From NCBI GenBank assembly GCA_013042495.1, contig JABDQB010000022.1, forward strand, positions 1-27,500: a stretch of DNA of 27,500 nt, written 5' to 3'. This stretch comes from Gemmatimonadota bacterium (GTDB taxonomy: Bacteria > Gemmatimonadota > Gemmatimonadetes > Palauibacterales > Palauibacteraceae). The notes under the pieces were generated by a model, which was not told where the DNA came from, made no database searches, and saw only the letters and a list, made by a program, of their open reading frames with translations. Positions 2,335-23,210 of this stretch are shown here, one piece after another. How positions within the stretch are numbered: the stretch's first letter is position 1; each line of letters starts with the position of its first letter. A program made the position numbers and the translations under genes.

Positions 2335-2398
2335 GACTAATGGTCGCAAGCATCTAAAATCTAATATGTTAAATGCACTGTAGGTTCATCTTGGGGGC

Positions 2399-2530
2399 TT
2401 GCGGCTTTTTCCCGATCCGGTAAGCTAGAAGTGTCCGACCGCAACGAAGACCACAGCGGTCGACCGGTGGCGGAGTTGATCGCAGCTTGAAGGCGCGCCG
2501 GTCCGGAGGGACACACCTTCTAAAGCGCGA
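2399..2530 (+). ncRNA. Candidate structured RNA of unknown family (sRNA or attenuator leader)
   Basis: Nested complementary segments: 2426-2436/2509-2522, GACCGC 2437-2442/GCGGTC 2456-2461, GACCGG 2462-2467/CCGGTC 2498-2503, AGTTG 2474-2478/CAGCT 2483-2487. Preceded by an AT-rich stretch and followed by a terminator. No family recognised. Confidence 0.4.
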
Positions 2531-2572
2531 AGAGGGCCTGCCTCAGACGTACAGACAGGCCCTCTTTTTTTT
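2531..2572 (+). terminator. Rho-independent terminator
   Basis: Perfect 10-bp stem AGAGGGCCTG (2531-2540)/CAGGCCCTCT (2556-2565) with a T8 run at 2565-2572. Confidence 0.8.
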
Positions 2573-2586
2573 GTGTAGATTGTGGT

Positions 2587-5134: not shown

Positions 5135-5563
5135 TTAGACGATCTCGACCAGCTCGATCTCGAACGTCAGCGCCTCGCCCGCCAGCGGGTGATTCGCGTC
5201 GACGATGACGCGCGCCTCATCGGCTTCGACCACCCGTGCCGAAACGGGCTGCCCGTCCTGGCCCTGCAGGTGGATCTGCTGACCGACCTCCGGATCGAAC
5301 TCCTTCGGAAGCTGCTCGCGGGCCAGCGTCAGCTTCATCTCGTCGCGCGCGGCGCCGTAGGCCTGTTCGGCAGGAATCCGGGTCGTCCGGGTATCGCCCG
5401 GCGTCATCCCACGGACCATTTCGTCGAAACCCGGAATCACCATTCCGGCGCCGACCGTGAACTCCAGCGGGTCGCGTCCGGCGGATGAATCGAACTGCGT
5501 TTCGTCATCCAGGGTGCCGGTGTAGTGCACTCGCACCACATCACCGTCTCTTGCTTCTGCCAC
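5135..5563 (-). CDS. slyD: FKBP-type peptidyl-prolyl isomerase, SlyD/SlpA type, no His-rich tail
   Basis: VHYTGTL...FDSS...VIPGF...AYG, insert-in-flap domain and DANHPLAGEALTFEIELVEI. GTG start at 5563 has an AAGGA RBS. Confidence 0.88.
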   Translation of the reverse strand: MAEARDGDVVRVHYTGTLDDETQFDSSAGRDPLEFTVGAGMVIPGFDEMVRGMTPGDTRTTRIPAEQAYGAARDEMKLTLAREQLPKEFDPEVGQQIHLQGQDGQPVSARVVEADEARVIVDANHPLAGEALTFEIELVEIV

Positions 5564-7256
5564 GCTTTGTCCTTTCGACTGGGTGATCTTCATGCATGTG
5601 GGTACCGAGCGAGCGGCCTTCGCGCAAGGTACGGCTCACGGTCTCAAAAACCTGGCGATCCGCCTTTCGTCGGTCCGGCTTCCGCTTTCGCATGGAAGCG
5701 AGGGAAAGACGCATCCGGGGGACGTCCTTCAACAGGTCCTCGTGACGCTCGAGGTAAGCCCAGTACATCGATGTAAGAGGGCAGGTCGCTTTCGGGTCGA
5801 ACACGCACGCCTGACAGTAGTCGCTCATCCGGTTGATATAGGCGGCACCGGACACGTAGGGCTTCGTCGTCATCAGGTCTCCGGCTCCAAACGTACCCAT
5901 CCCGAGCACGTTGGGCTCGACCACCCAGTCGAACGCGTCTGTGTACATGGACCAGAACCAATCCGTGAGCTCGCGCGGCGATACATCGAGCAGCGAGGCG
6001 ATGTTGGACAGCACCATGAGCCGGGAGATGTGATGCGAATACCCGGTAGTCAGCACCGTGTCTACGACGGAATCCAGGCAGTGGAGTCCCGAGGTCGAGC
6101 CCCAATAAGCATCGGGAAGCGCATTGGCGGCGTCCAGCGCCGACGGCGCTGCAGGGAGTGCCCCGGGTTTGCCTGGATCCGCCGTGGGCTCGCCCTTGCT
6201 CTCGCCCGAAAGATCGCGAAGGCCATCGGTCCGCGCGTGAACGTGCCGCATGAACTCCCTCCACCCGAGCACCTGCCGCACGAAGCCCTCCTTGCTGGCC
6301 AGCGGCACGTCCAACTGAGCCACATCGCGGACCACCCGTCGCGGCAGGAGGCGATGCACGTGCAGGAGAAACGCGATGCGTGAGTGGAACAAGCCGTCGG
6401 ATTGCTCGGACATAGCGTCCTCATAGGGTCCGAACAACGGGAGGCACTCGGTCTTCGCCCAGGACCAGAGAGCCTCGGCATCCGTCTGTGTGGAGCACAG
6501 CGCATGGGGGACCAGGACTCCGGGGTGCGTTTCGAATCGCGCCTGAACCAGCTCGAGAACTTCTGCTTTGATGGGATCGAGTGGGAAGTCCGGCGGGGTC
6601 GGTGCGGCCGGTGTTCCCGGCCATGGCTGCCTGTTGTCTACATCGAAGCTGAACTTCCCACCGACAGGCCGCCCGTCCTCCATCAGGATCCCGGACTCGC
6701 GCCGTACCCGCCGGTAGAAGGCGTCCATCCGCCACGGCGGCGGTCCCTTCTGGCTGGCCGCGAACTGCTCGGGTGTCGTCAGCCATCCCTCGTGCGGCAC
6801 GACGTCGATCAGGCCATCGGCCACGAGTCGTGCGACGTCGAGCCTCAGTTCACGCTCGGCGGCACGCATCATGGTGAGGCCTCCTGCTTCAGCCGCGACG
6901 GGGGCGAGCGCGTCCGAGTATGAGCCTCTTGATACGATATGCCGGACGGCTACCCCTCGGGCCGCCTGCTCGAGCGCGAAATGTCTGAGATTCGAGAGGA
7001 TGAGGGCCAGCTTCTGCTTGTGGTACGGCCTCAGGCTGGCTTTCTGCGGAGACTCGACAAGAACCACCCCCACGTCGGCCGGGTCCATGCGGGAGAGAGG
7101 GCCGATCCGATCAGAGGTCTGATCGTAGGGCACGAAGATCCAGCTGCGGCCTTCCGGGTCGGGATTTCGCGAGAGAAGTTCCCGACGGAATGCGGAGATG
7201 CCCGCGCGGCTCTGCGGTTCAGGGGTCACGGCGCTCAGCTCAACGGTCGAATCCAC
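5541..7256 (-). CDS. Cryptochrome/photolyase family protein, FeS-cluster (PhrB/CryB-like (6-4) photolyase) type
   Basis: HKQKL, GGKFSFDVDNR, GWREF, GYSHHISRLM, DAFDWV and KPYVSGAAYINRMSDYCxxC...CP motifs. Four Cys for a 4Fe-4S cluster (GLHCL plus CQAC...C). Exact start uncertain. Confidence 0.88.
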   Translation of the reverse strand: MDSTVELSAVTPEPQSRAGISAFRRELLSRNPDPEGRSWIFVPYDQTSDRIGPLSRMDPADVGVVLVESPQKASLRPYHKQKLALILSNLRHFALEQAARGVAVRHIVSRGSYSDALAPVAAEAGGLTMMRAAERELRLDVARLVADGLIDVVPHEGWLTTPEQFAASQKGPPPWRMDAFYRRVRRESGILMEDGRPVGGKFSFDVDNRQPWPGTPAAPTPPDFPLDPIKAEVLELVQARFETHPGVLVPHALCSTQTDAEALWSWAKTECLPLFGPYEDAMSEQSDGLFHSRIAFLLHVHRLLPRRVVRDVAQLDVPLASKEGFVRQVLGWREFMRHVHARTDGLRDLSGESKGEPTADPGKPGALPAAPSALDAANALPDAYWGSTSGLHCLDSVVDTVLTTGYSHHISRLMVLSNIASLLDVSPRELTDWFWSMYTDAFDWVVEPNVLGMGTFGAGDLMTTKPYVSGAAYINRMSDYCQACVFDPKATCPLTSMYWAYLERHEDLLKDVPRMRLSLASMRKRKPDRRKADRQVFETVSRTLREGRSLGTHMHEDHPVERTKRGRSKRR

Positions 7257-7798
7257 TCCACGTCGAGGCGGAACGGGCCCTCGACCTTGTCACCGATCAG
7301 GAGTCCCATCTGCTCAATCTGGCCCGGCATGAGATCGGGCGCCCCGCGCGGCTTCCGGCCGCGGTAGGTCGCCTCGAAAGATTCGAACGGGATCTCGATC
7401 GTCTGCCACGTATCTGCCTGGGTACCGAACTCTGCCATGTAAGCGACTCCGTCGAACCGCCGATTCGTCCGCAACCGCACCTGGTACGTGCGACCATCTC
7501 CTCGCACCCGGAGCGCCAAGCCGCGGTGGCTCTCCATGGCCCCGGCTGGAACGACTCCGCGAACCGAGGCGAAACCACCGTTGTTCTCGAGCGACAGGTC
7601 GCCCCGGAAGACTGCAAACCCTTCACCCCCATCGACGAACTCGCTGCTCGATAGTCCGCCCATCACCCCGTCGTTGACGATCGCCCACTCCGAAACGGTG
7701 CTGGCGGTGACCTCAAACATGGGGACCGTGTCCGCGGGAGCGGACAACCCGAGGCCCGCCGCCAGCGCAGGGACGACCAGAACCGTCATCACGTCCAT
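7235..7798 (-). CDS. CIA30 (NDUFAF1-like) family protein
   Basis: WAIVNDGVMGGLS, GDLSLENNGGFASVR, LRVRGDGRTYQ and IPFESFEATYRG motifs. GAGGAG RBS upstream. Confidence 0.88.
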   Translation of the reverse strand: MDVMTVLVVPALAAGLGLSAPADTVPMFEVTASTVSEWAIVNDGVMGGLSSSEFVDGGEGFAVFRGDLSLENNGGFASVRGVVPAGAMESHRGLALRVRGDGRTYQVRLRTNRRFDGVAYMAEFGTQADTWQTIEIPFESFEATYRGRKPRGAPDLMPGQIEQMGLLIGDKVEGPFRLDVEWIRPLS

Positions 7799-8300: not shown

Positions 8301-10085
8301 ATGTCAGAAGCCCCCGGTTACCAGCGATTCTTCGCTGAGCTCAAGCGACGGAAGGTCTTTCAGTTGGCGGCCGTGTACGGTGCCGCCATGTTTGGCGTCT
8401 TGCAGGCGGCGGACGTCCTGGTTCCAGCCCTGCACCTGCCGGACGTCCTCATGACAATGGTGGCGGTGCTCGGGCTGATCGGCTTTCCCGTCGCGCTCGC
8501 CGTCGCCTGGACCTACGAGCGAACCGCTGCGGGGCTCGTGCGGACCGAAGACGCGGCGCCTGGTGAGCTGACCGAGATCATTTCGGCTCCTGCGGCGAAA
8601 CGTTGGCCCGTCGGCCTCGCCGCCGCCGCGGGCACGGCCCTGCTTCTGGTGGGCGGGTGGCTGGCGCTCGGCCGGCCGGCGAGTGGCGAGGGTGACACGG
8701 CCACGCCAGCGGCAGCCGGTACCGCGACCTCCGCTACGACGGTCTCCATTGCCGTATTACCGTTCGAGGACATGAGCGAACAGGGTGACAAGGAGTACTT
8801 CTCCGATGGATTGTCGGAGGAGCTCATCGATGTCCTGGTCCGGGTCGATCGACTTCGCGTCGCTGCTCGCACCTCTTCCTTCGCGTTCAAGGAAAGCGCG
8901 GCGGATATCCGGACGATCGCCGATTCCCTGGGGGTCGAAACCGTGCTGGAAGGCAGTGTCCGGGCTTCCGGAGACCGCCTCAAGATCACCGCGCAGTTGG
9001 TCCAGGCGTCAGACGGGTTTCACCTGTGGAGCGATACGTACGAGCGTCAGCTCACGGACGTGTTCGAGGTGCAGGAAGAGATCGCAACGGCCATCTCGGA
9101 CGCGTTGCTCGGCACGCTGGGGCTGGAAGGCCGGACCCAATTCACCGTGGCTCGCACGGACATCGAGGCCTACGAGCAGTATCTTCTGGGCCGCGCATTC
9201 GTAAGCCAGCGCGGACCGGCGCTGCGGCGCGCCGAGGACCACTTCCGGGCAGCCATCTCCATCGATTCGACGTATGCACCGGCCTGGGGCGGTCTCGCGG
9301 AAGTGTTCGCGGTCTATCCCTACTACGTCGATATTCCCGTCGATGAGGCCCTGGCCGAGTCCGAAAGGGCGGCCCGTCGGGCACTCGCCCTCGATTCACT
9401 GTCGGCCAGCGCCAGAGTGGCCCTCGGCAGCGTACTGCGAGAGAGGCGGAAATGGGCCGAAGCCGAAGCCGAGCTGCTGAACGCGCTTGAGCTGTCTCCA
9501 GAAAGTGCGGAGGCCAACGGCGAGTACTCGCAGTACCTGGGCTATGTGGGGCGGCTCGGAGAAGCGTCAGAGTTCGCGGACCGGGCGCTCGCTCTTGATC
9601 CCCTCTCCGGTCACAAGCTTGGCATCGCCGGCGTGTACTCCTTGCTGGCCGGGGATGTCGAGGCGGCCGAGGAACGGATGTGGCGCGCCCGGGACTTCTC
9701 GATTTCCGCCATCATCCTCACCCAGCACCTCGTCTCGCAAGGCAGATTCGATGAGGCCGAACAGGCCGCCCGGCTCAGCCCCAGCACCACGGACATGCTG
9801 CTGACGCTCGTGGAGGCGGTTCGCAGTCCGGTCGGTTCGGAGACCCGCGCCCGCGTCCTCGAACAGATCAGCGATCGCGAAATGCCGCTCGACCTGGGCG
9901 GCGGAACACCTCAATCGGCCTGGTTGCTCCTCCTCGGCGAGAGGGAGGCGGCCATCGACCTCCTCGAGGGGATGCTCGAGGGGCCGCTACTCGGCCTGGA
10001 GATGCTATGGCTGCCGGTGTACGATCCGATCCGTGACCACCCGCGCTACCCGGCGATCGTCGCAAGGCTCGAGCTGCCGGAGTGA
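8301..10085 (+). CDS. Membrane-anchored TolB-like (FlgO-type) domain plus TPR protein, no catalytic domain seen
   Basis: N-terminal YQRFFAELKRRKVF and three hydrophobic helices. SIAVLPFEDMS...EYFSDGLSEELI...VAARTSSF...VLEGSVR...ITAQLV domain followed by TPRs. Start set at ATG 8301. Confidence 0.85.
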   Translation: MSEAPGYQRFFAELKRRKVFQLAAVYGAAMFGVLQAADVLVPALHLPDVLMTMVAVLGLIGFPVALAVAWTYERTAAGLVRTEDAAPGELTEIISAPAAKRWPVGLAAAAGTALLLVGGWLALGRPASGEGDTATPAAAGTATSATTVSIAVLPFEDMSEQGDKEYFSDGLSEELIDVLVRVDRLRVAARTSSFAFKESAADIRTIADSLGVETVLEGSVRASGDRLKITAQLVQASDGFHLWSDTYERQLTDVFEVQEEIATAISDALLGTLGLEGRTQFTVARTDIEAYEQYLLGRAFVSQRGPALRRAEDHFRAAISIDSTYAPAWGGLAEVFAVYPYYVDIPVDEALAESERAARRALALDSLSASARVALGSVLRERRKWAEAEAELLNALELSPESAEANGEYSQYLGYVGRLGEASEFADRALALDPLSGHKLGIAGVYSLLAGDVEAAEERMWRARDFSISAIILTQHLVSQGRFDEAEQAARLSPSTTDMLLTLVEAVRSPVGSETRARVLEQISDREMPLDLGGGTPQSAWLLLLGEREAAIDLLEGMLEGPLLGLEMLWLPVYDPIRDHPRYPAIVARLELPE

Positions 10086-10843
10086 TGGTTCCGCCGGTAC
10101 CCGGGCGGCCACGTAGCCATAGCGCCGGGTTCGGCCGGCGCGACCTGCACGTGTGGAAGGCGGACCTGGACGCATCGCCCGGGCGCCTCGCACGATTCGA
10201 ACAGACGCTGGGGCCGGATGAACGCGCGCGGATCGGCAGGCTTCGTGCAGAGGCCGATCGTCGGAGGGCAACGGCCAGCCGCGGTCTCTTGCGACACGTC
10301 CTGTCGGAATACGCTGGGATTCCCGCCGCGGAGCTACGCTTCGCCTACGGACCGGCGGGCAAGCCCGAGTTGACGGAATCTGCGGACGGCGCGTCGCTCT
10401 ATTTCAACACCGCGCACTCTGGCGACGTGTTGCTCGTCGCCGTTGGCCGGGCATCACTCGGCGTGGACGTCGAGCGCGTTCGGCCGATCGCCCGGTGGGA
10501 GAGGGTCGCCCGGCGCGCCTTTTCCGAGAATGAGATGCGCCAGATCCAGGCGCTTCCGCCGGAGTTGCGGTCCGAGGCCTTCATCACGTGCTGGACCCGC
10601 AAGGAAGCTTGCGTAAAGGCAGTCGGTGAGGGGGTCTGGTCCGCGTTCGGCCGGTTCGAGGTTTCGGTGACGCCCGGCCAGCCCGCGAAAGTGCTATCGG
10701 TGGACGGCGCGCCAGCGCTCGCAGCGGACTGGTCGCTGTACCACCTTGAGCTCGTGCCGCATTTCGTGGGCGCACTGGCGATTCGGGGGACCGGGTGGCA
10801 GCTCCGGGTCAGCACGCTTCGGCCTGCGGAGGCAAGAACGTGA
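10082..10843 (+). CDS. Sfp-type 4'-phosphopantetheinyl transferase
   Basis: YGPAGKP, FNTAHSGD, LGVDVE and WTRKEACVKAVGEG motifs. Start is GTG 10082 or ATG 10085, overlapping the upstream stop. Confidence 0.9.
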   Translation: MMVPPVPGRPRSHSAGFGRRDLHVWKADLDASPGRLARFEQTLGPDERARIGRLRAEADRRRATASRGLLRHVLSEYAGIPAAELRFAYGPAGKPELTESADGASLYFNTAHSGDVLLVAVGRASLGVDVERVRPIARWERVARRAFSENEMRQIQALPPELRSEAFITCWTRKEACVKAVGEGVWSAFGRFEVSVTPGQPAKVLSVDGAPALAADWSLYHLELVPHFVGALAIRGTGWQLRVSTLRPAEART

Positions 10844-12537
10844 GTGTCTTGAAGACGGAAGTTCGACCGGGCGGCTACTACGACTCGATCGTGTTGATGC
10901 AGCTGCAGGCGGCGCTCGCCGATCTGCCAGGGGTCGAGGACGCAGGCGCCGTGATGGCCACGCCGGAAAACCGAGCGCTGCTGGAGGCGAGCGGTCTCAT
11001 GTCCGACGTGGCTGTCGAGGCCGGTCCCGCTGATCTCCTCGTCGTGGTGCGGGCCGAAACGGAAGACGCAGCGACCGACGCCCTGTCCAGGGTCGACGGC
11101 CTCCTGGTGCGGGGTGGCACCGGCGGGGGCGACGATTACCGACCGCGCAGCCTGGAATCGGCGCTCAAAGTGCTGCCGGAAGCGCGGTGGGCCCTGGTTT
11201 CGACGCCGGGCCGGTTCGCTGCCGGCGTGGCGCGCGAGGCCCTGGACCGCGGATTGAACCTGTTCCTGTACAGCGACAACGTGACTGTGGAGGACGAGGT
11301 TGCTCTCAAGCGCAGGGCCGCTGCGGACGGTCGGCTGGTGATGGGTCCGGACTGCGGGACGGCGTTGATAGCCGGAGTCGGGTTTGGGTTCGCCAACCGG
11401 GTGCGACGCGGCTCGATCGGCCTCGTTGCAGCATCGGGCACGGGTCTGCAGGCGATCTCGAGCCACGTGCACGCCCTCGGTGGCGGTGTGTCCCACGCCA
11501 TCGGAACCGGGGGGCGGGACCTTGCAGAAGAGGTAGGGGCGTTGACCGCCCGGCAGGGGCTCGACCTGTTGGCGCGCGATCCCGGAACGGAAGTGATCGT
11601 CCTGGTCTCCAAGCCTCCGGTTCCCTCCGTCGCCCGGTCCGTTCTCGGCGCAGCGAGGGGTACCGGAAAGCCTGTCGTTGTCCACTTCCTGGGATTCGCG
11701 CCGCCGGCACGGCGTATCGGCTCGCTCTACTTCGCGACCAGTCTTCCGGAGGCTGCCTGGATGGCCGTCGATCTGGCCAAGTCCGCGGGTGCGGTGGTTG
11801 ACGCAGAGAAGGACCCTCGCGGTGAAGACGGAGGTGCGAGCGCCGGAGGCTACCTGCGGGGACTGTTCGCCGGCGGCACGCTGGCCTCGGAGTCACTCCT
11901 CGCTCTCAAGAACTTCCTGGATCCGCTGCACTCGAACATGAAAGGGGACACGATACGGCCGTTGGAGGCCGTGCCGCGCAGCGAGTTCCACACGATCCTC
12001 GATCTCGGGGCGGACGAGTACACGGTGGGCCGCCTGCACCCGATGATCGACAACGACATGAGGGTACGCAGGATCGCACAGGAAGCCGCCGACCCGGAGG
12101 TCGGACTGATCCTACTGGACCTCGTGCTGGGCGATGGAGCGCACCCCGATCCGGCCGGTGAACTGGCTCCCGCGATCGCTGAGGCGCGACGCTCGCGGGA
12201 CCTGGAGTTCGTCGTGGTGGTGGTGGGCACGGACGAGGACCCGCAGGATCTGGCATCCCAGGTGGCAGCCCTCGAGGATTCCGGGGCCCTGGTGTTCGAG
12301 GATCTCACGAGTGCTCTGAGTCGAGTCGTCGATCGCCTGGTCGAGGTCGTGCCGCCCCCGCTGCCACCCGTGGAAGTGGAGCTCCTGTCCGCTCCGGTGG
12401 TCGCGGTCAATATCGGGCTCGAGTCGTTCTCCGAGAGTCTTGCGGACCAGGGAGCTCAGGCCGTCCACCTGGATTGGAATCCTCCTGCCGGGGGAGACGA
12501 CCAACTGATGGCGATTCTCGAGCGAATGAGGAGGTAG
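10840..12537 (+). CDS. fdrA: FdrA/YahF family protein (succinyl-CoA synthetase-like folds; AllF-like)
   Basis: YYDSIVLM, FLYSDNV, VMGPDCGT, SHAIGTGGRDL, GLFAGGTLA, DLGADEYTVGRLHPMID and DWNPPAGG motifs. GTG start at 10840 forms a GTGA overlap. Confidence 0.9.
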   Translation: MSVLKTEVRPGGYYDSIVLMQLQAALADLPGVEDAGAVMATPENRALLEASGLMSDVAVEAGPADLLVVVRAETEDAATDALSRVDGLLVRGGTGGGDDYRPRSLESALKVLPEARWALVSTPGRFAAGVAREALDRGLNLFLYSDNVTVEDEVALKRRAAADGRLVMGPDCGTALIAGVGFGFANRVRRGSIGLVAASGTGLQAISSHVHALGGGVSHAIGTGGRDLAEEVGALTARQGLDLLARDPGTEVIVLVSKPPVPSVARSVLGAARGTGKPVVVHFLGFAPPARRIGSLYFATSLPEAAWMAVDLAKSAGAVVDAEKDPRGEDGGASAGGYLRGLFAGGTLASESLLALKNFLDPLHSNMKGDTIRPLEAVPRSEFHTILDLGADEYTVGRLHPMIDNDMRVRRIAQEAADPEVGLILLDLVLGDGAHPDPAGELAPAIAEARRSRDLEFVVVVVGTDEDPQDLASQVAALEDSGALVFEDLTSALSRVVDRLVEVVPPPLPPVEVELLSAPVVAVNIGLESFSESLADQGAQAVHLDWNPPAGGDDQLMAILERMRR

Positions 12538-12541
12538 TTCC

Positions 12542-13780
12542 GTGGACCTCGCGCAAGCCAACCACGCGGCCGTCGAGCGCATGATGACAGCACGCCCATT
12601 GCTGAAGGGCGTCGCGACGGCGCGCGACGTGATCCCCGGGATGCGGGATGGACTGATCCTGCACGCGGGCCCGCCTATCGAATGGGGGCGGATGTCAGGT
12701 CCTCTGCGCGGCGCCGTGATCGGGGCCCTTCTGTTCGAGGGACTGGCCGAGGACGAGTCCGACGCGACAGGCCTGATCGAGAGGGGAGAGATCGAATTCG
12801 CGCCGTGCCACCACCACCAAACCGTGGGTCCGATGGCCGGTGTCACCTCGGCTTCGATGGCGGTCTACGTGGTCGAGAACGTCACGCACGGAAATCTCGC
12901 CTTTTCCAACCTGAACGAGGGATACGGCAAGGTGCTGCGCTACGGCGCCTACAGTCCGGAGGTCCTGGAGAAGCTCGGTTGGATGAACAGCGTGATGGCA
13001 CCCGTCCTGGCGGACGCGCTGGCGGCGAGCGCCGAACTCGACCTGCGCGCCCTTCTCGCCGAGGCTCTGCACATGGGGGATGAGGGGCACAACCGAAACA
13101 AGGCTGGGTCACTGCTGTTCCTCAAACTTCTGGCACCCCACGTGGCCCGGGTGGCCTCTTCGGACGTCGCCGAGGAGGTCCTGAAATTCCTCGGTGACAA
13201 CGCCCTCAGCGTGCTCAACCCCGTGATGGCTGCCTGCAAGGCAATGGCGGATGCGGGGCACGGAGTAGAGGGCAGCACCATCGTGACGGCCATGGCTCGC
13301 AACGGGACGGACTTCGGCATCCGGGTTAGCGGCCTGGGCGGCGATTGGTTCACGGCTCCCGCGCAGGTGCCCGACGGGCTCTACTTCTCCGGGTTCAGCT
13401 CAGAGGACGCCAACGCCGACATCGGTGACAGCACCATCACCGAGACGGCCGGTATCGGCGGCTTCGCCATGGCGGCGGCGCCCGCCATCGTCACCTTCGT
13501 GAGTGGCACACCGAAGGACGCGGTGAACACGACGATGGAGATGTACGAGATCACGGAAACCGACCATCTGCATTTCACGATTCCGGCGCTGGATTTTCGC
13601 GGCACGCCGACGGGCATCGACCTCCGGAAGGTAGTGGAGCTCGGGATCACGCCGCGCATCAACACGGGGATCGCGCACCGGGACGCCGGGATCGGCCAGG
13701 TAGGGGCTGGGCTCGTGCGTCCGCCGATGGAGGTATTCGAGGCGGCACTCATCGCCTACGCCGAGCGCTACGGAGTCTGA
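12542..13780 (+). CDS. ylbE: DUF1116 (YlbE/YahG, AllG-like) protein
   Basis: ILHAGPP, GPMAGVTS, NEGYGKVLRYGA, GDEGHNRN, ARNGTDFGIR, DIGDSTITET and INTGIAH motifs. Strong GAGGAGG RBS. Directly follows fdrA. Confidence 0.9.
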   Translation: MDLAQANHAAVERMMTARPLLKGVATARDVIPGMRDGLILHAGPPIEWGRMSGPLRGAVIGALLFEGLAEDESDATGLIERGEIEFAPCHHHQTVGPMAGVTSASMAVYVVENVTHGNLAFSNLNEGYGKVLRYGAYSPEVLEKLGWMNSVMAPVLADALAASAELDLRALLAEALHMGDEGHNRNKAGSLLFLKLLAPHVARVASSDVAEEVLKFLGDNALSVLNPVMAACKAMADAGHGVEGSTIVTAMARNGTDFGIRVSGLGGDWFTAPAQVPDGLYFSGFSSEDANADIGDSTITETAGIGGFAMAAAPAIVTFVSGTPKDAVNTTMEMYEITETDHLHFTIPALDFRGTPTGIDLRKVVELGITPRINTGIAHRDAGIGQVGAGLVRPPMEVFEAALIAYAERYGV

Positions 13781-13788
13781 GCGGCGCC

Positions 13789-15201
13789 CTACTCGACTCC
13801 CGGCGGCCGACCGATGGGCCTGAGCTCCTCGATCCGCCCGGCCAGGGCCAGGACGGACTCCTCGCCGCGCGGAGGGCCCACGACCTGGATGCCGACCGGG
13901 AGTCCGCTCGCATCCAGCCCCGCCGGGACACACGCCACGGGGAGATCGGTCAGCGTGAGGACGAAGGTGGGCGCGATCCATTCGATGTACGTATCCATCT
14001 TCCGGCCACCGATGGTCTCCGGGAAGTCCTGCTCGACGGGGAAGGGAGGCACGGGAACACAGGGCGTCAGCAGGTAATCATACCGCTCGAACAGGTCGCC
14101 CATCTTCCGGCGCAGCCGCTCCCGCGATTGCTCCGCCGCCGCCACCCGGGCCGGCGCGAGGGCGAGCCCGGCTCTGATGTTCCCGGCCAGATTCGGCCCG
14201 AGCTCGGCCAGCCGGCCGAGCCTGGAACGGTGGTGCTCCACCATCCAGCGTCCGCGCAGCGTCAGGAAAGCCTCGAATCCGTCCGACAGATCGAGGTCGG
14301 TTCCTTCTACATTGGCGCCTGACAGCTCCAGACTCTCCGCGGCCTCGCGGCATACCCGCTCGAGAGCCGGGTCGGCCCCGAGGCCCGCCAGGTCGGGAGC
14401 GTATGCCACTCGAGTCGCTTCTGCGGGACCACGCCGTACCGCGCCGACGAAGTCCCGCTCCGCTCCTGGCTCGGGAGTCGTCGTCGTGGGGATCGGACCG
14501 GAAACCGCCTCGAGCATGAGGGCCACGTCCGCCACCGTGCGCCCCATCGGCCCGGTGACGCTGAGGTCGTCGGCCGGCCACTCGGTAGGCACGGTGGGCA
14601 CCAGGCCCGGGGAAGGGCGCAGGCCGACCACTCCGCAGAACGAGGCCGGCACGCGCAAGGACCCGCCGAGATCGGTTCCCTCGGCCAGGGCGATCATGCC
14701 TGCGGCTAGGGCCGCCGCTCCGCCACCGGTCGATCCTCCCGCGCTCAACTCGGGATTCCACGGGTTTCGCGTGCGTCCGAACACCTCATTGAACGTGTTG
14801 CCGCCGGCCGCGAACTCGGGAGTGTTGGTCTTTCCCAGGATCACGGCCCCTGCCTCGCGCAGTCGGCGCACGACGAGTGCGTCCTCGTCCGGCACGTGAT
14901 CCGCATACAGGGGCGAGCCGTACGTCGTGCGCAGCCCGGCGACGGGCGTGGTGTCCTTGATTCCCACGGGAAGGCCGCACAGGGAACCGGGGTTCTCGCC
15001 TGCCGCCAGTCGCCGCTCGAGTTCCCGGGCCTGCTCCGTGGCGCTCTCATCCGGCGTGACGAGCGCGTTGATCCGGTCGTTGTGGCGGTCGATCTGTTCG
15101 AGGCACGCGTCGAGGACATCGACCGGTGACAGCTCGCCGTCAGCCACCCGACGCCGCAGCTCGACCGCCGAGAGGAGGGCGATCGACGATGGCTCGCTCA
15201 C
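13789..15201 (-). CDS. Amidase-signature family amidase
   Basis: GLPVGIKD, GKTNTPEF, GGSTGGGAAA and GTDLGGSLRVPASFCG (Ser-cisSer-Lys triad). Confidence 0.92.
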   Translation of the reverse strand: MSEPSSIALLSAVELRRRVADGELSPVDVLDACLEQIDRHNDRINALVTPDESATEQARELERRLAAGENPGSLCGLPVGIKDTTPVAGLRTTYGSPLYADHVPDEDALVVRRLREAGAVILGKTNTPEFAAGGNTFNEVFGRTRNPWNPELSAGGSTGGGAAALAAGMIALAEGTDLGGSLRVPASFCGVVGLRPSPGLVPTVPTEWPADDLSVTGPMGRTVADVALMLEAVSGPIPTTTTPEPGAERDFVGAVRRGPAEATRVAYAPDLAGLGADPALERVCREAAESLELSGANVEGTDLDLSDGFEAFLTLRGRWMVEHHRSRLGRLAELGPNLAGNIRAGLALAPARVAAAEQSRERLRRKMGDLFERYDYLLTPCVPVPPFPVEQDFPETIGGRKMDTYIEWIAPTFVLTLTDLPVACVPAGLDASGLPVGIQVVGPPRGEESVLALAGRIEELRPIGRPPGVE

Positions 15202-15216
15202 TGTCGCGGACTCCGC

Positions 15217-16005
15217 TCAGTCTTCCACGAACGCGATGGCGCGGCAGAACGCGGCCTCGCCGTCCTTGAACTTCCACGGGAAGATCCCGATCGTGAGGCG
15301 CTGGTTCTGAAGCTCGGGCGCCGCGATGTCCCCGCCCATGTTCTCGACGTGCATGCAGTTGTGGGGGAACAGCTTGTTGTGCGTGAGCTGGTAATCCTCG
15401 TCCGGGAACAGGCGCGCCACCGCCTCCGGACCTCCGAACTTCTCTTCCGCCAGGGCACGGACGCGGTCGCAGTGTCCGAACGTGCCTTTTCCGAGGAACC
15501 GGCCGATCGGCAGGTCCATGGGGTGATCGGTCGAGATCGCGTCGACGCCCCAGATGCGCACGTCCTTCTCGAGCAGCCATGGCACCATGTCCGGGTGGGC
15601 GCCCGGGTGGACGTGGACGTAGCGCTCCTCGTCCGGCGTCTCACCGAACTGGGCGAATCGTCCCCAGCCCGTGTGGAGGATGACGATGTCCCCCTTCTTC
15701 ACTTCGACCCGGCTGTCGATCATCTCAGGCGTGTAGGCGGCAAGGTCGTCCATCTCCTCGCGGAGGTCGACGATCACTCCCGGTCCGTACAACCAGTCGA
15801 GGGGAATCTGGTCGATCGTCATCCCGCCGGTGACGAAGTGCCGCGGCGCGTCGAGGTGCGTTCCCATGTGGTTCGAAGTCTGGATGTACTGGGCGTTCAC
15901 GCCGTGCTCGACTTTCCTCTTAATGTACTTTACCTCAAACGGCGGATAGTACGGCCAGAAAAAGACTTCCTGATTCAACGGCTGCGACAGATCGTATAGC
16001 TTCAT
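15217..16005 (-). CDS. Cyclase family metal-dependent amidohydrolase (kynurenine formamidase/isatin hydrolase-like)
   Basis: HxGTHxDxPxH motif (NHMGTHLDAPRH), ILHTGW, GVDAISTDHP and HVENM. ATG 16005 has a GGAGG RBS. Confidence 0.9.
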   Translation of the reverse strand: MKLYDLSQPLNQEVFFWPYYPPFEVKYIKRKVEHGVNAQYIQTSNHMGTHLDAPRHFVTGGMTIDQIPLDWLYGPGVIVDLREEMDDLAAYTPEMIDSRVEVKKGDIVILHTGWGRFAQFGETPDEERYVHVHPGAHPDMVPWLLEKDVRIWGVDAISTDHPMDLPIGRFLGKGTFGHCDRVRALAEEKFGGPEAVARLFPDEDYQLTHNKLFPHNCMHVENMGGDIAAPELQNQRLTIGIFPWKFKDGEAAFCRAIAFVED

Positions 16006-16047
16006 GTGTGCCTCCATGTGTGGTTCCGGTGTTGGCGCAGCCCCGCC

Positions 16048-17267
16048 TTACACGACGTCCTGCCGGCGAAGCTCGGCTATCTCCGCTCCGCTCTTGCCCA
16101 ACCAGTCGACGAGAATCTCGTCCGTGTGTTGGCCGAGCACGGGCGGTGGCGTATCTACCGCTCCCGGTGTCTCCGAGAGTTTGACGGGCACCCCGGTCAC
16201 GCGGATCGGCCCGGCCCTTGGATGCTCCAGCTCGACCACCATGTCGCGCGCGAGTACCTGTGGGCGTTCGCACACTTCACGCACGGAGTCGATACGTCCG
16301 GCCGGGACGCCGGCAGCCTGCAGGGCCTCGATCCACTCGGCGGTCGTCTGCTCCAACATCCTCGCGCCAAGCACCGCGCGCAGGTCGTCGGCGTACTTGA
16401 CTCGATCCGCGTTGGTGCGGAAGCGCGGATCCTCCGCAAGTCCTTCCAGATCCGCCGCATCGCAGAACCGGCGCCAAATGGCCTCGTTGCCGCACGCCAC
16501 GTTCAGGTAGCCGTCCCGGCACTCGAAGGTCTCGTATGGAACGATGGACGGGTGCCGATTTCCCATCCGGGTCGGACTCCCGCCGGTGGCGAAGTAGATG
16601 CCGGCCTGGTAGGTGAGCAGCGCGACCTGGCAATCGAGCATTCCGATGTCCACCTTCTGCCCCAGGCCCGTGCGCTCGCGCGCGATCAGGGCCAGCAGGA
16701 TCCCCTGGCAGGCCATCATTCCGGCGACGATGTCGGCCTGGGACGTGCCCACCTTGAAGGGCTGTCCGTCTTCGTCTCCCGTGAGGCTGGCGATTCCGCC
16801 CTCGCCCTGAATGATCAGGTCGTAGCCCGGAAGTGCGGCATCGGGCCCCGTTCCACCATACCCGGAGATCGAGCAGTAGATGAGCTTCGGGTTGATCTCG
16901 CGCACCGCTTCGTAGCCGTACCCCAGGCGGTCCATCAGACCGGGGCGAAAGTTCTCGACCACGACGTCGGCCGTCTCCAGCATCTGGCGCAGAACCGTCA
17001 GCCCACGCTCGTGCTTGAGGTCCAGCGTCATGCCGCGCTTGTTCCGGTTGATGCTCATGAAATAGGTGCTCTCGCCACCCAGGAACGGGGGGCCGTACCC
17101 ACGCGTGTCGTCGCCAGCGCCAGGCCGCTCGACCTTGACCACATCGGCGCCCATGTCGGCGAGCATCATCGTGCAGTACGGGCCGGCCAGGACCCGCGTG
17201 AGATCGAGTATCCGGAGCCCGGCAAGCGGCCGCGGCGAGTTTGCCTCTCCCCCGGCGGGACGATCGC

Positions 17268-17271
<4 letters not shown>
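16048..17271 (-). CDS. Family III (CaiB/BaiF) CoA transferase
   Basis: LAGLRILDLTRVLAGPYCTMMLADMGADVVKVE, NRNKR, DVVVENFRPG and catalytic-Asp region QADIVAG. GTG 17271 overlaps the NCS1 stop. Confidence 0.92.
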
Positions 17272-18709
<1,438 letters not shown>

Positions 18710-18713
<4 letters not shown>

Positions 18714-19600
18714 GCGCCCGCTGCCCTCCGCGCAGCCGTGTCGAGCGCCCGGGCCGTGAGCACTCGCGCGAGTTGCCGGCGGTACGCGGCCGAGGCGTGT
18801 ATGTCGGCCGGCGGATCGATGTCGATCGTCGCCACGGCCTCGCCGGCATCCCGCACCGCGTCCGGGGTGAGCGTCCTGTCGCGCAGCGCGTCCTCGGCCG
18901 TCTTCGCGCACACCGGACCGTCCCCGACGCTGAGCAGCGTGAGCGATGCCCGGGTGCACACGCCGCCGGCGTCCAGGGTGACGACGGCGCACACGCCCAC
19001 CAGCGCGAAGTCGCCTTGCCGGCGCGAGATTTCCAGGAACGCGGTGCCCGTGCCGGCGGGGAGAGGCGGGATTTCGACGCCCGTAACGAGCTCGTCAGGG
19101 GCCAGTGCCGTGCTGAAGAACCCGGTGCAGAAGTCGCAGAACTGCACGGTTCGGTCGCCCGCCGGCCCGCGCAGGTGGATTCGCGCGTCCAGGGCCAGCA
19201 TCACGGCGGGCAGTTCCGCCGCCGGGTCGGCGTGGGCCAGGCTTCCCCCCATCGTGCCTCGATTGCGGATCTGCGGATGGGCGATCCACGGCATCGCTTC
19301 GGCGAGGAGTGGCGCCCTATCGCGCACGACGGCGCTGCGTTCCAGCTCCGAGTGCCGCGTCATCGCCCCGATGTACAGGCCATTCGTAGCCCCGTCGCCT
19401 CCACCGTCCCTGATTCCCCGCAGCTCGTCCAGGCGGTCGATGTCCACCAGCACGGCCGGTTGTGCCAGGCGGAAGTTCATCGTCGGAATGAGGCTCTGGC
19501 CGCCGGCCAGTGGCTTGGCGCCGTACCCCTCGGCGGCCAGCACGGAAATGGCCTCGTCCACGGAGGACGGACGGACGTAACGGAACGGGGCCGGTTTCAC
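18710..19600 (-). CDS. Mo-hydroxylase (XDH/CODH family) FAD-binding medium subunit, CoxM-like
   Basis: MKPAPFRY, LAGGQSLIP, IRNRGTMGGSLAHADPAAE and RRQGDFA motifs. Confidence 0.92.
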
Positions 19601-20181
19601 AGGAGCAGCACCATGACGAGGGCGAGGAGGATCGCGACGACCAAAAAGAGCCTGAGACGCTCCTTGCGTGTCGCCGGCGGCCAGGAAGGGGAAGAGACCT
19701 CCAGGTCGGTGCTCCCCGCGACGGCGGCCGTCGGCGCCTGCCGCTCCATGATGGATCGATTCACCGCTTCCAGTCCCTGCTTACTCATCATCTTGCCGAC
19801 CGATTCGAGCAATCGCTGGCCCACGCTCGCCACGCGTCCACCCACCTGGAGATCGGCCCGGTATTTCATGACGGTTCCGCCGTCAGTCTCCTCGAAGGCG
19901 ACTCTGGCGATCCCGTTCACGAATCCGGCCTTGCCCTTGCCGTCCACGTGCATGTCGAAGCTCTCGGGGCGCACCTTTTCCTTCAGTTCGACCACTACGG
20001 AGAATCGGGCCGCCGTTACGGGGCCGACGCTCGCCTCCATCTCACCCTCGTACCGGTCCTCGCCGACCAATTCGAGCCGGTCGGTGCCCGGCAGCGCGCT
20101 TGCCAGGACGTCGGGATCCAGAAGCCCCTCGTACACGACCTCGGGCGGAAAGTCGAACGTGAACTCGGACTCAATCAGCAT
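19597..20181 (-). CDS. coxG: CoxG/SRPBCC family protein with C-terminal membrane anchor
   Basis: LLDPDVLASALPG, YRADLQVGGRVASVGQRLL and terminal helix LFLVVAILLALVMVLLL. Confidence 0.85.
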   Translation of the reverse strand: MLIESEFTFDFPPEVVYEGLLDPDVLASALPGTDRLELVGEDRYEGEMEASVGPVTAARFSVVVELKEKVRPESFDMHVDGKGKAGFVNGIARVAFEETDGGTVMKYRADLQVGGRVASVGQRLLESVGKMMSKQGLEAVNRSIMERQAPTAAVAGSTDLEVSSPSWPPATRKERLRLFLVVAILLALVMVLLL

Positions 20182-20183
20182 GG

Positions 20184-22571
20184 CTATCCTTCCTCACGCG
20201 CGTCGCGCATCAACTCGAACAGGCGGTTCGGGCTCAGCGGTATCTCGCGGACCTCGAAGCCGTCGACGTCGAGCGCGTTCTCCAGGGCCTGGGCGAACAG
20301 CGCACCGACCGGGATCGCTCCGGCTTCACCCACTCCTTTTACCCCCAGCGGGTTGAGGGGCGAGGGCGTCTCGACGTGGTCGGTCTCGATGGTCGGCACG
20401 TCGGTCGCCGTCGGCAGCAGGTAGTCCATGAACGAGGCGTTGAGAAGCTGGGCGCCCTCGTCGAATACGAGCTCCTCGTAGAACGCGTTCCCGATCCCGT
20501 GCGCCACGCCGCCGTGGATCTGTCCCTCCACGATCATCGGATTGATGACCCGTCCGCAGTCGTGCACCACGACGTAGCGCAGGATCCGGACAAGGGCGGT
20601 GTCCGGGTCGACTTCGAGAATCATGGCGTGTACGCCGCTCGCCGTGACGCCTCGCTCGGGCCCGAAGTACGCGGTGGCCTCGAGACCGGGTTCCGTACCC
20701 GGAGTCACCGCTCCGCGCAGCGGGTTGGCGAGCGCCGCCAGCTCGCCGAGTGAGATCGATTCCCCGCTTCCCACCACCCGCACCACGCCTTCTGCCAGGT
20801 CGAGATCTTCCTCGGCCGCTCCGAGCACGGAGCTCGCCATGGTGAGGACCTTCTTCCGCACTTCAAGCGCTGCCGCGTGGCAGGCGTTCCCGGCGACCAC
20901 CGCGCCCCGACTCGCGAACGTACCCGTGCCCCAGCCGAAGCGGGCGGTGTCTCCGGTCACGACCTCGACATCGGACGCCTGGACGCCGAGCTGCTCGGCC
21001 ACGATCTGGGCGAACGACGTGAAATGGCCCTGACCCTGCGTACCCACGCCTGTCACCAGGTTGATACGGCCGCCCGGCTCGATTCCCACTCGAGCGCCCT
21101 CGTACGGTCCGACGCCCGTGCCCTCCACGTACGAGACGATCCCCAGCCCCACGTGCCGACCTTCCGACCGCGCGGCCGCCCCTGCGCCGGACTCGAAGCC
21201 CGCGTAGTCGATCATCTCGACCGCCCGGTCCATCGCCTCCGCGTAGTTGCCGCTGTCATACACGAGGGGCTTGAAGTCCTGGTAGATGATCTCGTGGTCG
21301 TGCGGGAACTCCTCGGGGGTGAGGTAATTGCGGCGACGGATCTCGACCCGGTCGATCCCGAGCTCGTCCGCCGCCCGGTCCAGGAGGCGCTCCATCACGA
21401 ACACCCCGTGCTGCCGGCCGGCTCCCCGGACCGGCGTGCAGATAGGCTTGTTCGTGAACACCATCCGGAACTCGCTGTGGTAATTCGGGACCCGGTACGG
21501 GCCGAGCAGCGTGCACTGTGTGTTGATCGGAATCGTGAGGCCGTAGGGGTTATAGGCGCCGGTATCGCAGAGGAATTCGTCGCGCACACCCAGGATCCGT
21601 CCCTCCGCATCCACCGCGAGCTCCGACTCGTGGTCCTGCCCGCGCTCCTGCGTCGTCGCGAAGAAGCTCTCCTGCCGGTCCTCGATCCACTTCACCGGCT
21701 GGCCGAGCCGCATCGAGATCCAGGGAAGGAGCACCTCTTCGGGGTAGAACATCATGATCTTGGGTCCGAATCCTCCGCCGATGAACGGGGCGATCACCCG
21801 TACCTCCGACTGGGGAAGACCCAACATCGCCGCGAGCCCGTTGCGGATCGGAATCGGCGCCTGCGTCGTGTCCCACACCGTGAGCTCACGGCTGCGGGCG
21901 TCCCAATTGGCCACGATGCCGCGATTCTCCATCGGGGCCGAGGCTCCGTGATCGTACCAGAAGCGCCTCTTGATCACTCGGTGCGCCCGCTCGCGGACTT
22001 CCTCCCATGACCCTTTTCGCTGGATGACATGCGCTGCGAGGTTCGACTCGAGCTGATCGTGGATCCGAGGGGAGTCCGGTTCAAGGCCTCCCTTGAGGTC
22101 CGATACGACATCCAGCGGTTCGATATCCACTTCGACCAGGGCAGCCCCATCCTCGGCCTCGTATGGGCTCCGCGCCACGACGACCGCGATCGGTTCGCCG
22201 ACGTGCCGCACCTTGCCCTTGGCCAGCGGCACCTGCGTGGCGGCGTGAAACTCGAGGTCGTCGATAGGCGGTGGGGGAACGAGAAGCGGACCGGCCTCCC
22301 AGTAGTCACCGAGATCGTGCGCAGCGTAGGCCGCGACCACCCCGGGATGCTCGAGGGCGGCCGTGAGATCCACGGACTTGACGTTTCCGTGCGCGTAATC
22401 GCTCCGCACGAACGCCGCGTGCAGCATCCCATCCAGGTGAACGTCGTCCACGAACAGGGCCTCGCCCGTGAGAAGTCGGCGATCCTCGTTGCGCAGCGGA
22501 GACTCGCCCACCTGGCGGGGGCGGGCTGGGGCCTCTGCCGGAGGAGCCGCGAAGGTCGTGTCGTGGCTCAC
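20184..22571 (-). CDS. Mo-hydroxylase molybdopterin-binding large subunit (CoxL form II/XDH-like, not form I CODH)
   Basis: EDRRLLTG, TQAP, GGGFGPK, PVRGAGR, GQGH, FASRG, GQIHGG and KGVGE motifs. True start is GTG 22571, overlapping the small-subunit stop. Confidence 0.92.
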   Translation of the reverse strand: MSHDTTFAAPPAEAPARPRQVGESPLRNEDRRLLTGEALFVDDVHLDGMLHAAFVRSDYAHGNVKSVDLTAALEHPGVVAAYAAHDLGDYWEAGPLLVPPPPIDDLEFHAATQVPLAKGKVRHVGEPIAVVVARSPYEAEDGAALVEVDIEPLDVVSDLKGGLEPDSPRIHDQLESNLAAHVIQRKGSWEEVRERAHRVIKRRFWYDHGASAPMENRGIVANWDARSRELTVWDTTQAPIPIRNGLAAMLGLPQSEVRVIAPFIGGGFGPKIMMFYPEEVLLPWISMRLGQPVKWIEDRQESFFATTQERGQDHESELAVDAEGRILGVRDEFLCDTGAYNPYGLTIPINTQCTLLGPYRVPNYHSEFRMVFTNKPICTPVRGAGRQHGVFVMERLLDRAADELGIDRVEIRRRNYLTPEEFPHDHEIIYQDFKPLVYDSGNYAEAMDRAVEMIDYAGFESGAGAAARSEGRHVGLGIVSYVEGTGVGPYEGARVGIEPGGRINLVTGVGTQGQGHFTSFAQIVAEQLGVQASDVEVVTGDTARFGWGTGTFASRGAVVAGNACHAAALEVRKKVLTMASSVLGAAEEDLDLAEGVVRVVGSGESISLGELAALANPLRGAVTPGTEPGLEATAYFGPERGVTASGVHAMILEVDPDTALVRILRYVVVHDCGRVINPMIVEGQIHGGVAHGIGNAFYEELVFDEGAQLLNASFMDYLLPTATDVPTIETDHVETPSPLNPLGVKGVGEAGAIPVGALFAQALENALDVDGFEVREIPLSPNRLFELMRDAREEG

Positions 22572-23077
22572 GTGGCCATCCGATCCGCCGCCAGCCGCAC
22601 GGCCGTCACGATGTTCTGGTAGCCCGTGCAACGGCACAGGTGGCCGGAAAGGGCTTCCCGGATCTGCTCCTCGTCCGGGTCCGGGTTCTCTTCGAGAAAC
22701 GGGACGAGCGTCATCAGGATGCCGGGTGTGCAGAACCCGCATTGCAGGCCGTGAGATTCACGGAACGCGGCCTGGATCGGGTGAAGGTCGGCGTCTTCCG
22801 GATGCGGGATTCCGGATCCATCCGACGGTGTCGCCAGCCCCTCCACGGTGCTTATCTCGGCGCCATCCGCCTGCACGGCGAACACGAGGCACGAGCGCAC
22901 GGCCTCACCGTCGAGGAGGACCGTGCACGCGCCGCACACGCCGTGCTCGCATCCCACGTGCGTGCCCGTCAGGTGAAGGTCGTGCCGGAGGAAGTCGCTG
23001 AGGAGAAGCCGAGGCTCAACAGGCCGGTCGTAGGCTTTCCCGTTGACGGTCAATCGGATGGTCAGCGTCTCGCCCAA
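22568..23077 (-). CDS. Mo-hydroxylase (2Fe-2S)-binding small subunit, CoxS-like
   Basis: [12 protein letters not shown]...[10 protein letters not shown] and CRCTGY motifs. TTG start. Confidence 0.92.
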
Positions 23078-23210
23078 CGGCTACGCCCCTTGTCCTGGAT
23101 TGCCGATCTGCGCTGAGGAGGTGATGAGACACGAAAAACCAATCTACGGAATAGTCACCGCGCGCGAAAATCCGTCACGGCGGTGCAAGTAGCGGACGAT
23201 CAGGATCGCT

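Follow-up and report, generated by a model that had tools for sequence, protein, structure and literature searches.

The DNA described here (27,500 nt; hereafter the window) is the complete contig JABDQB010000022.1 of the Gemmatimonadota metagenome-assembled genome (MAG) G000. Its positions 10840-23077 carry ten genes, two on the plus strand and eight on the minus strand. They encode a three-subunit molybdenum (Mo) hydroxylase, a nucleobase permease, a cyclase-family hydrolase, an amidase, a coenzyme A (CoA) transferase and homologues of FdrA (AllF) and AllG (DUF1116). We propose that the ten genes act together as a unit in the catabolism of a cyclic ureide, for which uracil and/or thymine are the most likely candidates, and that no oxygenase would be needed. 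The general scheme is that a cyclic ureide is hydroxylated, its ring is opened, the ureide is cleaved and a dicarboxylyl-CoA is formed; it is quite probable. For the specific reading, from uracil or thymine via barbiturate to malonate or methylmalonate, we estimate a probability of about 0.55. We infer every substrate and reaction from the gene identities, their conservation, their linkage and the replacement of genes by others of like function, all of which were observed.

In the proposed pathway, the base would be imported by the NCS1 permease. The CoxL-like Mo/FAD/FeS hydroxylase, together with CoxG, would put a water-derived hydroxyl group on C6 and so produce barbiturate or 5-methylbarbiturate (FAD, flavin adenine dinucleotide; FeS, iron-sulfur). 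The cyclase-fold metal hydrolase would then open the ring to ureidomalonate (N-malonylurea), in place of a barbiturase, to which its fold is unrelated. FdrA-AllG would convert ureidomalonate and phosphate into carbamoyl phosphate and malonamate, as Escherichia coli AllFGH does with oxalurate. The amidase would release ammonia and malonate or methylmalonate, from which the family III CoA-transferase would make (methyl)malonyl-CoA. The many relatives without FdrA-AllG presumably use the amidase itself to split the ring-opened ureide. Enzymes of the xanthine dehydrogenase (XDH) family hydroxylate sp2 C-H positions beside a ring nitrogen. Hydroxylation of uracil at C6 is typical for this family, and the classical oxidative pyrimidine route begins with it. 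When the ring of barbiturate is opened, N-malonylurea results, which is a close analogue of oxalurate.

A broader claim is more tentative, and we place it somewhat short of even odds. It holds that the block represents an undescribed oxygen-independent pyrimidine catabolism, widespread among anaerobes and among uncultured aerobes. It would combine a form II CO-dehydrogenase-like uracil/thymine dehydrogenase, a cyclase-fold barbiturase of separate ancestry and an AllF-AllG pair that phosphorolyses ureidomalonate, in the window apparently without AllH. The ring nitrogen would thereby be saved without urease, and ATP would be gained in anaerobes.

The genes of the window were named by Pfam and NCBIfam profile searches. 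The ten genes of the block are as follows.

10840-12537, plus strand: fdrA/allF homologue, succinyl-CoA-synthetase-alpha-like, large subunit of an AllFGH-type carbamoyltransferase (NCBIfam PRK06091, 510 bits, cut-off 433, residues 19-578 aligned; Pfam CoA_binding and Ligase_CoA)
12542-13780, plus strand: allG (DUF1116) homologue (PF06545 AllG, 314 bits)
13789-15201, minus strand: amidase-signature amidase (PF01425, 345 bits), proposed malonamate or ureidomalonate hydrolase
15217-16017, minus strand: cyclase-family metal hydrolase (PF04199, 134 bits), proposed ring-opening amidohydrolase and the signature gene of the cluster
16048-17271, minus strand: family III CoA-transferase (PF02515, 471 bits), proposed dicarboxylate (probably malonate/methylmalonate) CoA-transferase
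17268-18713, minus strand: NCS1 nucleobase:cation symporter of the Fur/allantoin-permease branch (TIGR00800, 362 bits, cut-off 353)
18710-19600, minus strand: FAD-binding medium subunit of the Mo-hydroxylase, CoxM-like (PF00941, PF03450)
19597-20181, minus strand: CoxG-like SRPBCC protein (PF06240 COXG, 66 bits)
20184-22571, minus strand: molybdopterin large subunit of the CoxL/Qor/Kdh branch (PF01315, PF02738, PF20256), proposed heterocycle hydroxylase
22568-23077, minus strand: 2Fe-2S small subunit of the Mo-hydroxylase (PF01799, PF00111)

A preliminary description of this DNA had reported an eight-gene, mostly coupled minus-strand run that converges on fdrA-DUF1116, and this layout was confirmed. 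Four minus-strand junctions (FeS/Mo, CoxG/FAD, FAD/NCS1 and NCS1/CoA-transferase) overlap by 4 nt. The other three have gaps of 2 nt (Mo/CoxG), 30 nt (CoA-transferase/cyclase) and 15 nt (cyclase/amidase). The convergent stops of allG (13778-13780) and the amidase gene (13789-13791) are separated by 8 bp, and allG starts 4 nt past the stop of fdrA. All the gene identities listed in that description were likewise named by Pfam or NCBIfam; the CoxG-like gene, which its title did not contain, is additional. Among the open reading frames (ORFs) of the window, Pfam and NCBIfam found no regulator, AllH or carbamate kinase within the block. G000 comprises 2.64 Mb in 511 contigs and is 81% complete. 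DNA nearly identical to the window was found in sediment and beach-sand metagenomes from three studies; no RNA data set was listed among the sequencing runs that contain it.

Linkage of the two gene sets

Comparative genomics supports the view that the two convergent gene sets make up one functional unit and that their arrangement did not arise by chance. The same ten genes occur in the same order in four other genomes of the genus. Two further genomes of the genus, G005 and G006, have an empty site, where the phosphopantetheinyl transferase (PPTase) gene that flanks the block is followed within about 35 bp by the right-hand TPR gene. The stretch that they lack corresponds to window positions 10840-23200 and is missing as a single block. 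Within the genus, the block is thus gained or lost as one piece. In the family/order comparison set of 41 genomes (G000 and 40 relatives), AllG and the cyclase orthologue were both present in 12 and both absent from 26; AllG alone was present in two, and the cyclase alone in one.

The two gene sets also come together in other arrangements. A more distant Gemmatimonadota MAG (L053) has FdrA-AllG-FeS-Mo-CoxG-FAD-cyclase-amidase on one strand. An operon in Syntrophomonadaceae runs from PucR through AllF, CN-hydrolase, cyclase, AllG, the FAD, FeS and Mo subunits and NCS1 to AllH, with a family III CoA-transferase just past it. A gene resembling Asp/Glu/hydantoin racemases is also located near this operon, but the match is weak and an unrelated gene stands in between. 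A Thermoanaerobacteraceae locus has the order carbamate kinase, AllH, AllF, AllG, cyclase, CN-hydrolase and NCS2 permease. In a Firmicutes-type sample of 401 genomes, drawn evenly from that phylum, a cyclase homologue was present in 26. All 26 had AllG, and in 25 of them it lay within 6 kb on the same contig; among the 375 genomes without the cyclase, AllG was present in 30. The preliminary description had left it to be checked whether the gene sets of the two strands co-occur elsewhere. They do so in L053 and in the interleaved operons; in 25 of the 26 Firmicutes-type carriers the cyclase and AllG are neighbours, and the empty sites point the same way.

It might still be supposed that two unrelated operons are neighbours here, FdrA-AllG belonging with the PPTase and the minus-strand genes being an independent Mo-hydroxylase operon, so that the 8-bp convergence would reflect compaction. 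The PPTase-fdrA-allG trio is indeed kept in five genera of the family, and in the four others it stands apart from the cyclase cluster. FdrA-AllG adjoins only 4 of the 80 cyclase loci mapped (see below), and AllG is absent from four of five complete carrier chromosomes. These facts have to be set against the presence or absence of the block as one unit within the genus, the co-directional genes of L053, the interleaving of both gene sets in operons of other phyla, the adjacency of cyclase and AllG in the Firmicutes-type carriers and their co-occurrence across the family. We regard two unrelated operons as practically excluded by this comparison.

The PPTase gene (10082-10843, plus strand) is of the Sfp type, with intact GxDxE and WxxKEAxxK motifs, and TPR proteins also flank the block. 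The stop of the PPTase gene overlaps the GTG start of fdrA at 10840 (GTGA, 10840-10843). This coupling is probably positional rather than functional, since the PPTase persists where fdrA-allG is absent.

Conserved core, gene replacements and the proposed phosphorolytic step

Relatives of the cyclase were collected by a pattern scan with one genome per species. At least 589 were returned, and the best 80 loci were mapped. These loci belong to Gemmatimonadota, Acidobacteriota, KSB1, Calditrichota, Longimicrobia, Brocadiia and others, and the carriers live in sediments and soils or as sponge symbionts. Many of the loci end at contig edges. With that limit, the FAD subunit was present in 62 of the 80 loci, the amidase, placed after the cyclase, in 60, the Mo large subunit in 57 and the 2Fe-2S subunit in 53. 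An AMP-forming ligase was found in 42, NCS1 and CoxG in 26 each, a family III CoA-transferase in eight and FdrA together with AllG in four. Thus, the conserved core consists of the CoxL-like Mo-hydroxylase, the cyclase and the amidase, with NCS1 and a CoA-activating enzyme often present. The conservation of the cluster, another check named in the preliminary description, extends over several phyla.

The AMP-forming ligase and the CoA-transferase share one slot, between the permease and the cyclase. Since these unrelated enzymes replace each other there, formation of a CoA ester seems to belong to the pathway. In the anaerobe variants, a CN-hydrolase stands in place of the amidase, and carbamate kinase and AllH are added. 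The earlier suggested order of import, hydroxylation, ring opening to an N-acylurea, cleavage by AllF/AllG, deamidation and CoA activation fits the gene content of all variants.

The window and the Syntrophomonadaceae operon are 75% identical in the cyclase, 57% in AllG, 50% in the CoA-transferase and 43% in FdrA/AllF. The Mo-hydroxylases and NCS1 permeases are of different subfamilies, with identities of 29% and 25%. Because of these low values, what the anaerobe operons suggest can be carried over to the window by way of the cyclase, AllG and the CoA-transferase, which are common to both, but not by way of the hydroxylase.

In E. coli, all three subunits of AllFGH are required for the conversion of oxalurate and phosphate to oxamate and carbamoyl phosphate (Kim and Kim 2024, PMC11326118). 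We did not find AllH (DUF2877, PF11392) in G000 (81% complete) or in its 40 relatives, 13 of which have AllG, while the E. coli control was detected. Either the pair in the window needs no third subunit, or that part is taken by a protein that was not recognised as such. The PPTase was considered as a stand-in for AllH and rejected: its motifs are ordinary Sfp-type ones, it has no similarity to AllH, and its orthologues persist in same-genus genomes without FdrA-AllG. As AllG is missing from four of the five complete chromosomes, the AllF/AllG step would be an alternative or an addition rather than a universal need. The place that the preliminary description gave to FdrA-AllG was upheld in one part: the pair is linked to the other genes as one unit. 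It lies outside the universal core, and AllH was not found in the 41 genomes searched.

A full-length carbamate-kinase-like gene is located elsewhere in G000 (G000:C74:1464-2387; 302 bits, arcC cut-off 358). Such genes, scoring about 300-320 bits against the same cut-off, occurred in 36 of the 41 genomes of the order regardless of AllG status. In the anaerobe variants, the carbamate kinase gene is within the operon. Urease alpha was not found in five carrier genomes, so that in the absence of AllFG nitrogen would be lost if urea were released as in the classical route.

Some loci had peculiarities of their own. Genome G023 carries two copies of the Mo-hydroxylase-NCS1-ligase-cyclase cluster on two contigs (L014 and L015). 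Their cyclases are 82% and 81% identical to that of the window, and AllG is not present. In L019 (G009:C7, from a 9-contig assembly), the Mo, FAD, NCS1, cyclase, amidase and AllG genes are each split over several frames, either by long-read indel errors or because the copy is decaying. The sponge symbionts Candidatus Palauibacter have a serine beta-lactamase-fold hydrolase gene between those of the cyclase and the amidase (L036, 10796-12010; L048, 13518-14732) and a YgeY-like M20 hydrolase gene after the amidase; both extra genes are lineage-specific. In L109, a 57-residue ORF was called between allF and allG (8416-8589), and its allF encodes 518 aa, as against 574 aa for AllF in the L106 operon.

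Candidate ring substrates

The block contains a complete Mo/FAD/FeS set by Pfam. Among solved structures, the Mo large subunit is nearest to quinoline 2-oxidoreductase (1t3q, E = 9e-148), and 8uem and 7dqx are also among the closest. A form I aerobic CO dehydrogenase was considered and rejected. The score to TIGR02416 was 512 bits (cut-off 991) and that to NF040766, the NCBIfam aerobic CO dehydrogenase group model, was 901 bits (cut-off 950); the active-site loop is PVRGAGR, as opposed to VAYRCSFR in CO dehydrogenase.

The cyclase has the metal-binding motif HxGTHxDxPxH at residues 50-60, which is invariant in 12 orthologues. The orthologues are 75-97% identical across phyla and form a separate group, far more conserved than HpoH/PKC. 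A paralogue on a Rhodococcus plasmid, about 36% identical, adjoins a CN-hydrolase and a ring dioxygenase. For HpoH and PKC of the cyclase family, hydrolytic opening of 2,3,6-trihydroxypyridine before an omega-amidase step has been reported or proposed (PMC6214936).

In eight of nine Firmicutes-type loci, a ring opener of the AtzD/TrzD type takes the position of the cyclase next to AllH-AllF-AllG, a permease and carbamate kinase. AllFGH homologues are thus paired with each of two unrelated ring openers whose products would be N-acylureas, which supports ring opening followed by ureide phosphorolysis. No AtzD-family match was found in the 80 cyclase loci or among the ORFs of the window. We rejected AtzD/barbiturase as a direct marker of barbiturate, since the Firmicutes-type AtzD genes resemble those of cyanuric acid hydrolases: their products are 73% identical to plasmid-borne TrzD-type enzymes and are accompanied by neither Mo genes nor an amidase. 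As a separate observation, the Firmicutes-type loci L130-L138 have PucR followed by AllH-AllF-AllG, the AtzD/TrzD-type opener, NCS2 and carbamate kinase; in some of them AllG is present twice. Such operons look like a phosphorolytic route, as yet undescribed, by which cyanuric acid or biuret-type compounds would be degraded with a yield of ATP.

A malonate-type product is suggested by several independent clues, a uracil-type substrate by one, the UraA-type permeases. The AMP-forming ligases that replace the CoA-transferase are nearest to the MatB malonyl/methylmalonyl-CoA synthetases of Rhodopseudomonas and Streptomyces (289 and 276 bits), compared with 214 bits to oxalate-CoA ligase. The NCBIfam malonyl-CoA synthase model was their first or second family match, below its cut-off. 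The nearest solved relatives of the CoA-transferase are SUGCT (362 bits), YfdE (307) and Frc (214); it is thus nearer to the succinyl-CoA:dicarboxylate transferases than to Frc. In one anaerobe operon (L150), the CN-hydrolase gene is separated from the Mo genes by three others, which encode a carboxyltransferase, a biotin carrier and a sodium pump of the OadB type. The carboxyltransferase matches PDB 1x0u (E = 6e-186), with a profile near-identical to methylmalonyl-CoA decarboxylase alpha and propionyl-CoA carboxylase beta. The biotin carrier has the EAMKM motif, and the pump is OadB-like (E = 3e-123). The same trio occurs again beside the L146 operon, and the pump beside a third operon. Ten NCS2 permeases of variant operons, those of L109 and L112 among them, were scored; six of the ten best matched the E. 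coli uracil permease UraA and then RutG. Malonyl-CoA decarboxylase (PF05292) had no match in the carriers, nor in the control genomes, and is therefore uninformative.

Other results weigh against uracil or thymine as the substrate, or against parts of the proposed route. The amidase has its signature residues, Lys (GIKD), GGST and GGSLR; however, it shows no special closeness to malonamidase E2 (130 bits) as compared with GatA (190 bits). YfdE, which acts on oxalate, is about as near a relative of the CoA-transferase as SUGCT is. The best match of the window's NCS1 was the allantoin permease model (303 bits, below the cut-off of 620). Four permeases of variant operons best matched the xanthine-permease subfamily, and PucR-type regulators occur in variant operons; both hint at purine products. 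To these must be added the low identity of the hydroxylase and NCS1 to those of Syntrophomonadaceae, the absence of FdrA-AllG from four of five complete carrier chromosomes and the failure to find AllH in the 41 genomes or urease alpha in five carriers.

Some of these points favour the chemistry of the preliminary description. Spelled out, an imported hydantoin- or allantoin-type ring would be oxidised to parabanate, the cyclase would open it to oxalurate, and oxamate plus carbamoyl phosphate, oxalate and finally oxalyl-CoA would follow. Allantoin-permease similarity in the window, PucR-type regulators, xanthine-permease-like transporters and the 307 bits to YfdE would all fit such a route. 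Isatin hydrolase, a member of the cyclase family, opens an alpha-keto-lactam. No one-step precursor of parabanate is known for a Mo-hydroxylase. The ligase that stands in for the CoA-transferase is nearer to MatB than to oxalate-CoA ligase, the CoA-transferase is SUGCT-like, UraA-type permeases occur in variant operons, and the pump embedded in such operons is of the methylmalonyl-CoA decarboxylase type, not an oxalate system. Oxalyl-CoA decarboxylase (TIGR03254) did not reach its cut-off in seven carrier genomes (best 221 bits, cut-off 739), G000 itself lying outside this search. Oxalurate is the only proven substrate of AllFGH (PMC11326118), which speaks for the parabanate route. According to another report (PMC5703782), parabanate turns into oxalurate spontaneously at neutral pH, which speaks against it. 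On this balance, the parabanate-to-oxalate chemistry is not supported in the form proposed, and we consider it quite unlikely.

It is also conceivable, though unlikely, that the same enzyme logic acts on another ring and ends in another short dicarboxylyl-CoA. Candidates are a 5-substituted or 2-/4-oxo pyrimidine (for example, isobarbiturate via dialurate), a triazine-like ureide, or a dihydroxypyridine that would lead to an amide of the glutaconamate or ketoglutaramate type, as with HpoH/PKC. The nearest relatives of the CoA-transferase act on C4-C6 dicarboxylates (SUGCT and succinate-glutarate CoA-transferase, for example), and HpoH/PKC with omega-amidase offer a precedent for the cyclase-amidase pair. 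Moreover, two unrelated types of Mo-hydroxylase and three types of transporter accompany the same cyclase, so the entry substrates may differ between lineages. However, pyridines have no ureido group and would leave no role for AllF/AllG and carbamate kinase, the companions of the cyclase in 25 of 26 anaerobe genomes. The ligase is MatB-like, and the decarboxylase found inside the variant operons is a methylmalonyl-type enzyme that matches glutaconyl-CoA decarboxylase with only E = 5e-30. Uracil or thymine, degraded via barbiturate to malonate or methylmalonate, remains the reading that we prefer.

Relation to known systems and neighbouring genes

We found no paper describing this combination of genes, in agreement with the preliminary description, which did not know it as a characterised pathway; the literature search covered few subscription journals. 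Relative to the literature, the proposed pathway would be new as a variant of the oxidative pyrimidine route joined to the AllFGH system.

In Rhodococcus, Mycobacterium and Corynebacterium, pyrimidines are oxidised by the classical route, which consists of uracil/thymine dehydrogenase (EC 1.17.99.4), barbiturase (EC 3.5.2.1) and ureidomalonase (EC 3.5.1.95). The proposed order of Mo/FAD/FeS hydroxylation, hydrolytic opening and ureide cleavage to a malonate-type acid would be the same, with the amidase and the three-subunit hydroxylase of the window cluster as candidates for the corresponding parts. The cluster differs in having a cyclase-fold enzyme instead of an AtzD/barbiturase-family one (0 of the 80 loci), in the AllF/AllG-type phosphorolytic step added in the window and in many anaerobe variants, and in the CoA-activating enzyme within the cluster.

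As in the AllFGH/AllK system of E. coli, the genes of FdrA and AllG are side by side, and both proteins pass the NCBIfam or Pfam cut-offs. Their homologues in other phyla share an operon with AllH, carbamate kinase and the cyclase. In contrast to E. coli, neither AllH nor an adjacent carbamate kinase accompanies them in the window, and genes for ring hydroxylation and ring opening surround them in place of allB, allC, allD and allE. The likely substrate would be N-malonylurea rather than oxalurate.

The clusters of HpoH (Rhodococcus rhodochrous PY11) and PKC (pAO1) resemble the window in that a PF04199 ring opener is followed by an amide hydrolase, the omega-amidase HpoI or NIT (PMC6214936). 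Unlike the window, these clusters use oxygenases, lead to 2-oxoglutarate and lack AllF/AllG, carbamate kinase, a CoA enzyme and a nucleobase permease. The Mo enzyme itself belongs with the CoxL/quinoline 2-oxidoreductase/ketone dehydrogenase branch, which is often annotated as form II CO dehydrogenase; it shares the three subunits plus CoxG in the order S-L-G-M. It departs from CO dehydrogenase in its loop, and its genomic company suggests a heterocycle as substrate, not CO.

If the proposed pathway is real, bacteria would have a further route of pyrimidine breakdown besides the reductive, Rut and classical oxidative ones. In anaerobes, carbamoyl phosphate and a decarboxylase that pumps sodium would serve to conserve energy. 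A physiological substrate would be available for a large CoxL-like group that is routinely annotated as CO dehydrogenases, a second substrate class for the recently identified AllFGH enzyme and DUF1116, and a function for a cyclase-family protein that ranks among the most conserved of its family. The pathway would also matter for the recycling of nucleobases where the carriers live, in sediments and soils and in sponges with their symbionts.

Outside the block, the window contains, in the stretches 952-3921 (plus strand), 5541-7256 and 7235-7798 (both minus strand), a B12-binding radical SAM gene, an acyltransferase gene and a photolyase-related (DPRP) gene beside a CIA30-domain gene. None of these is related to the cluster.

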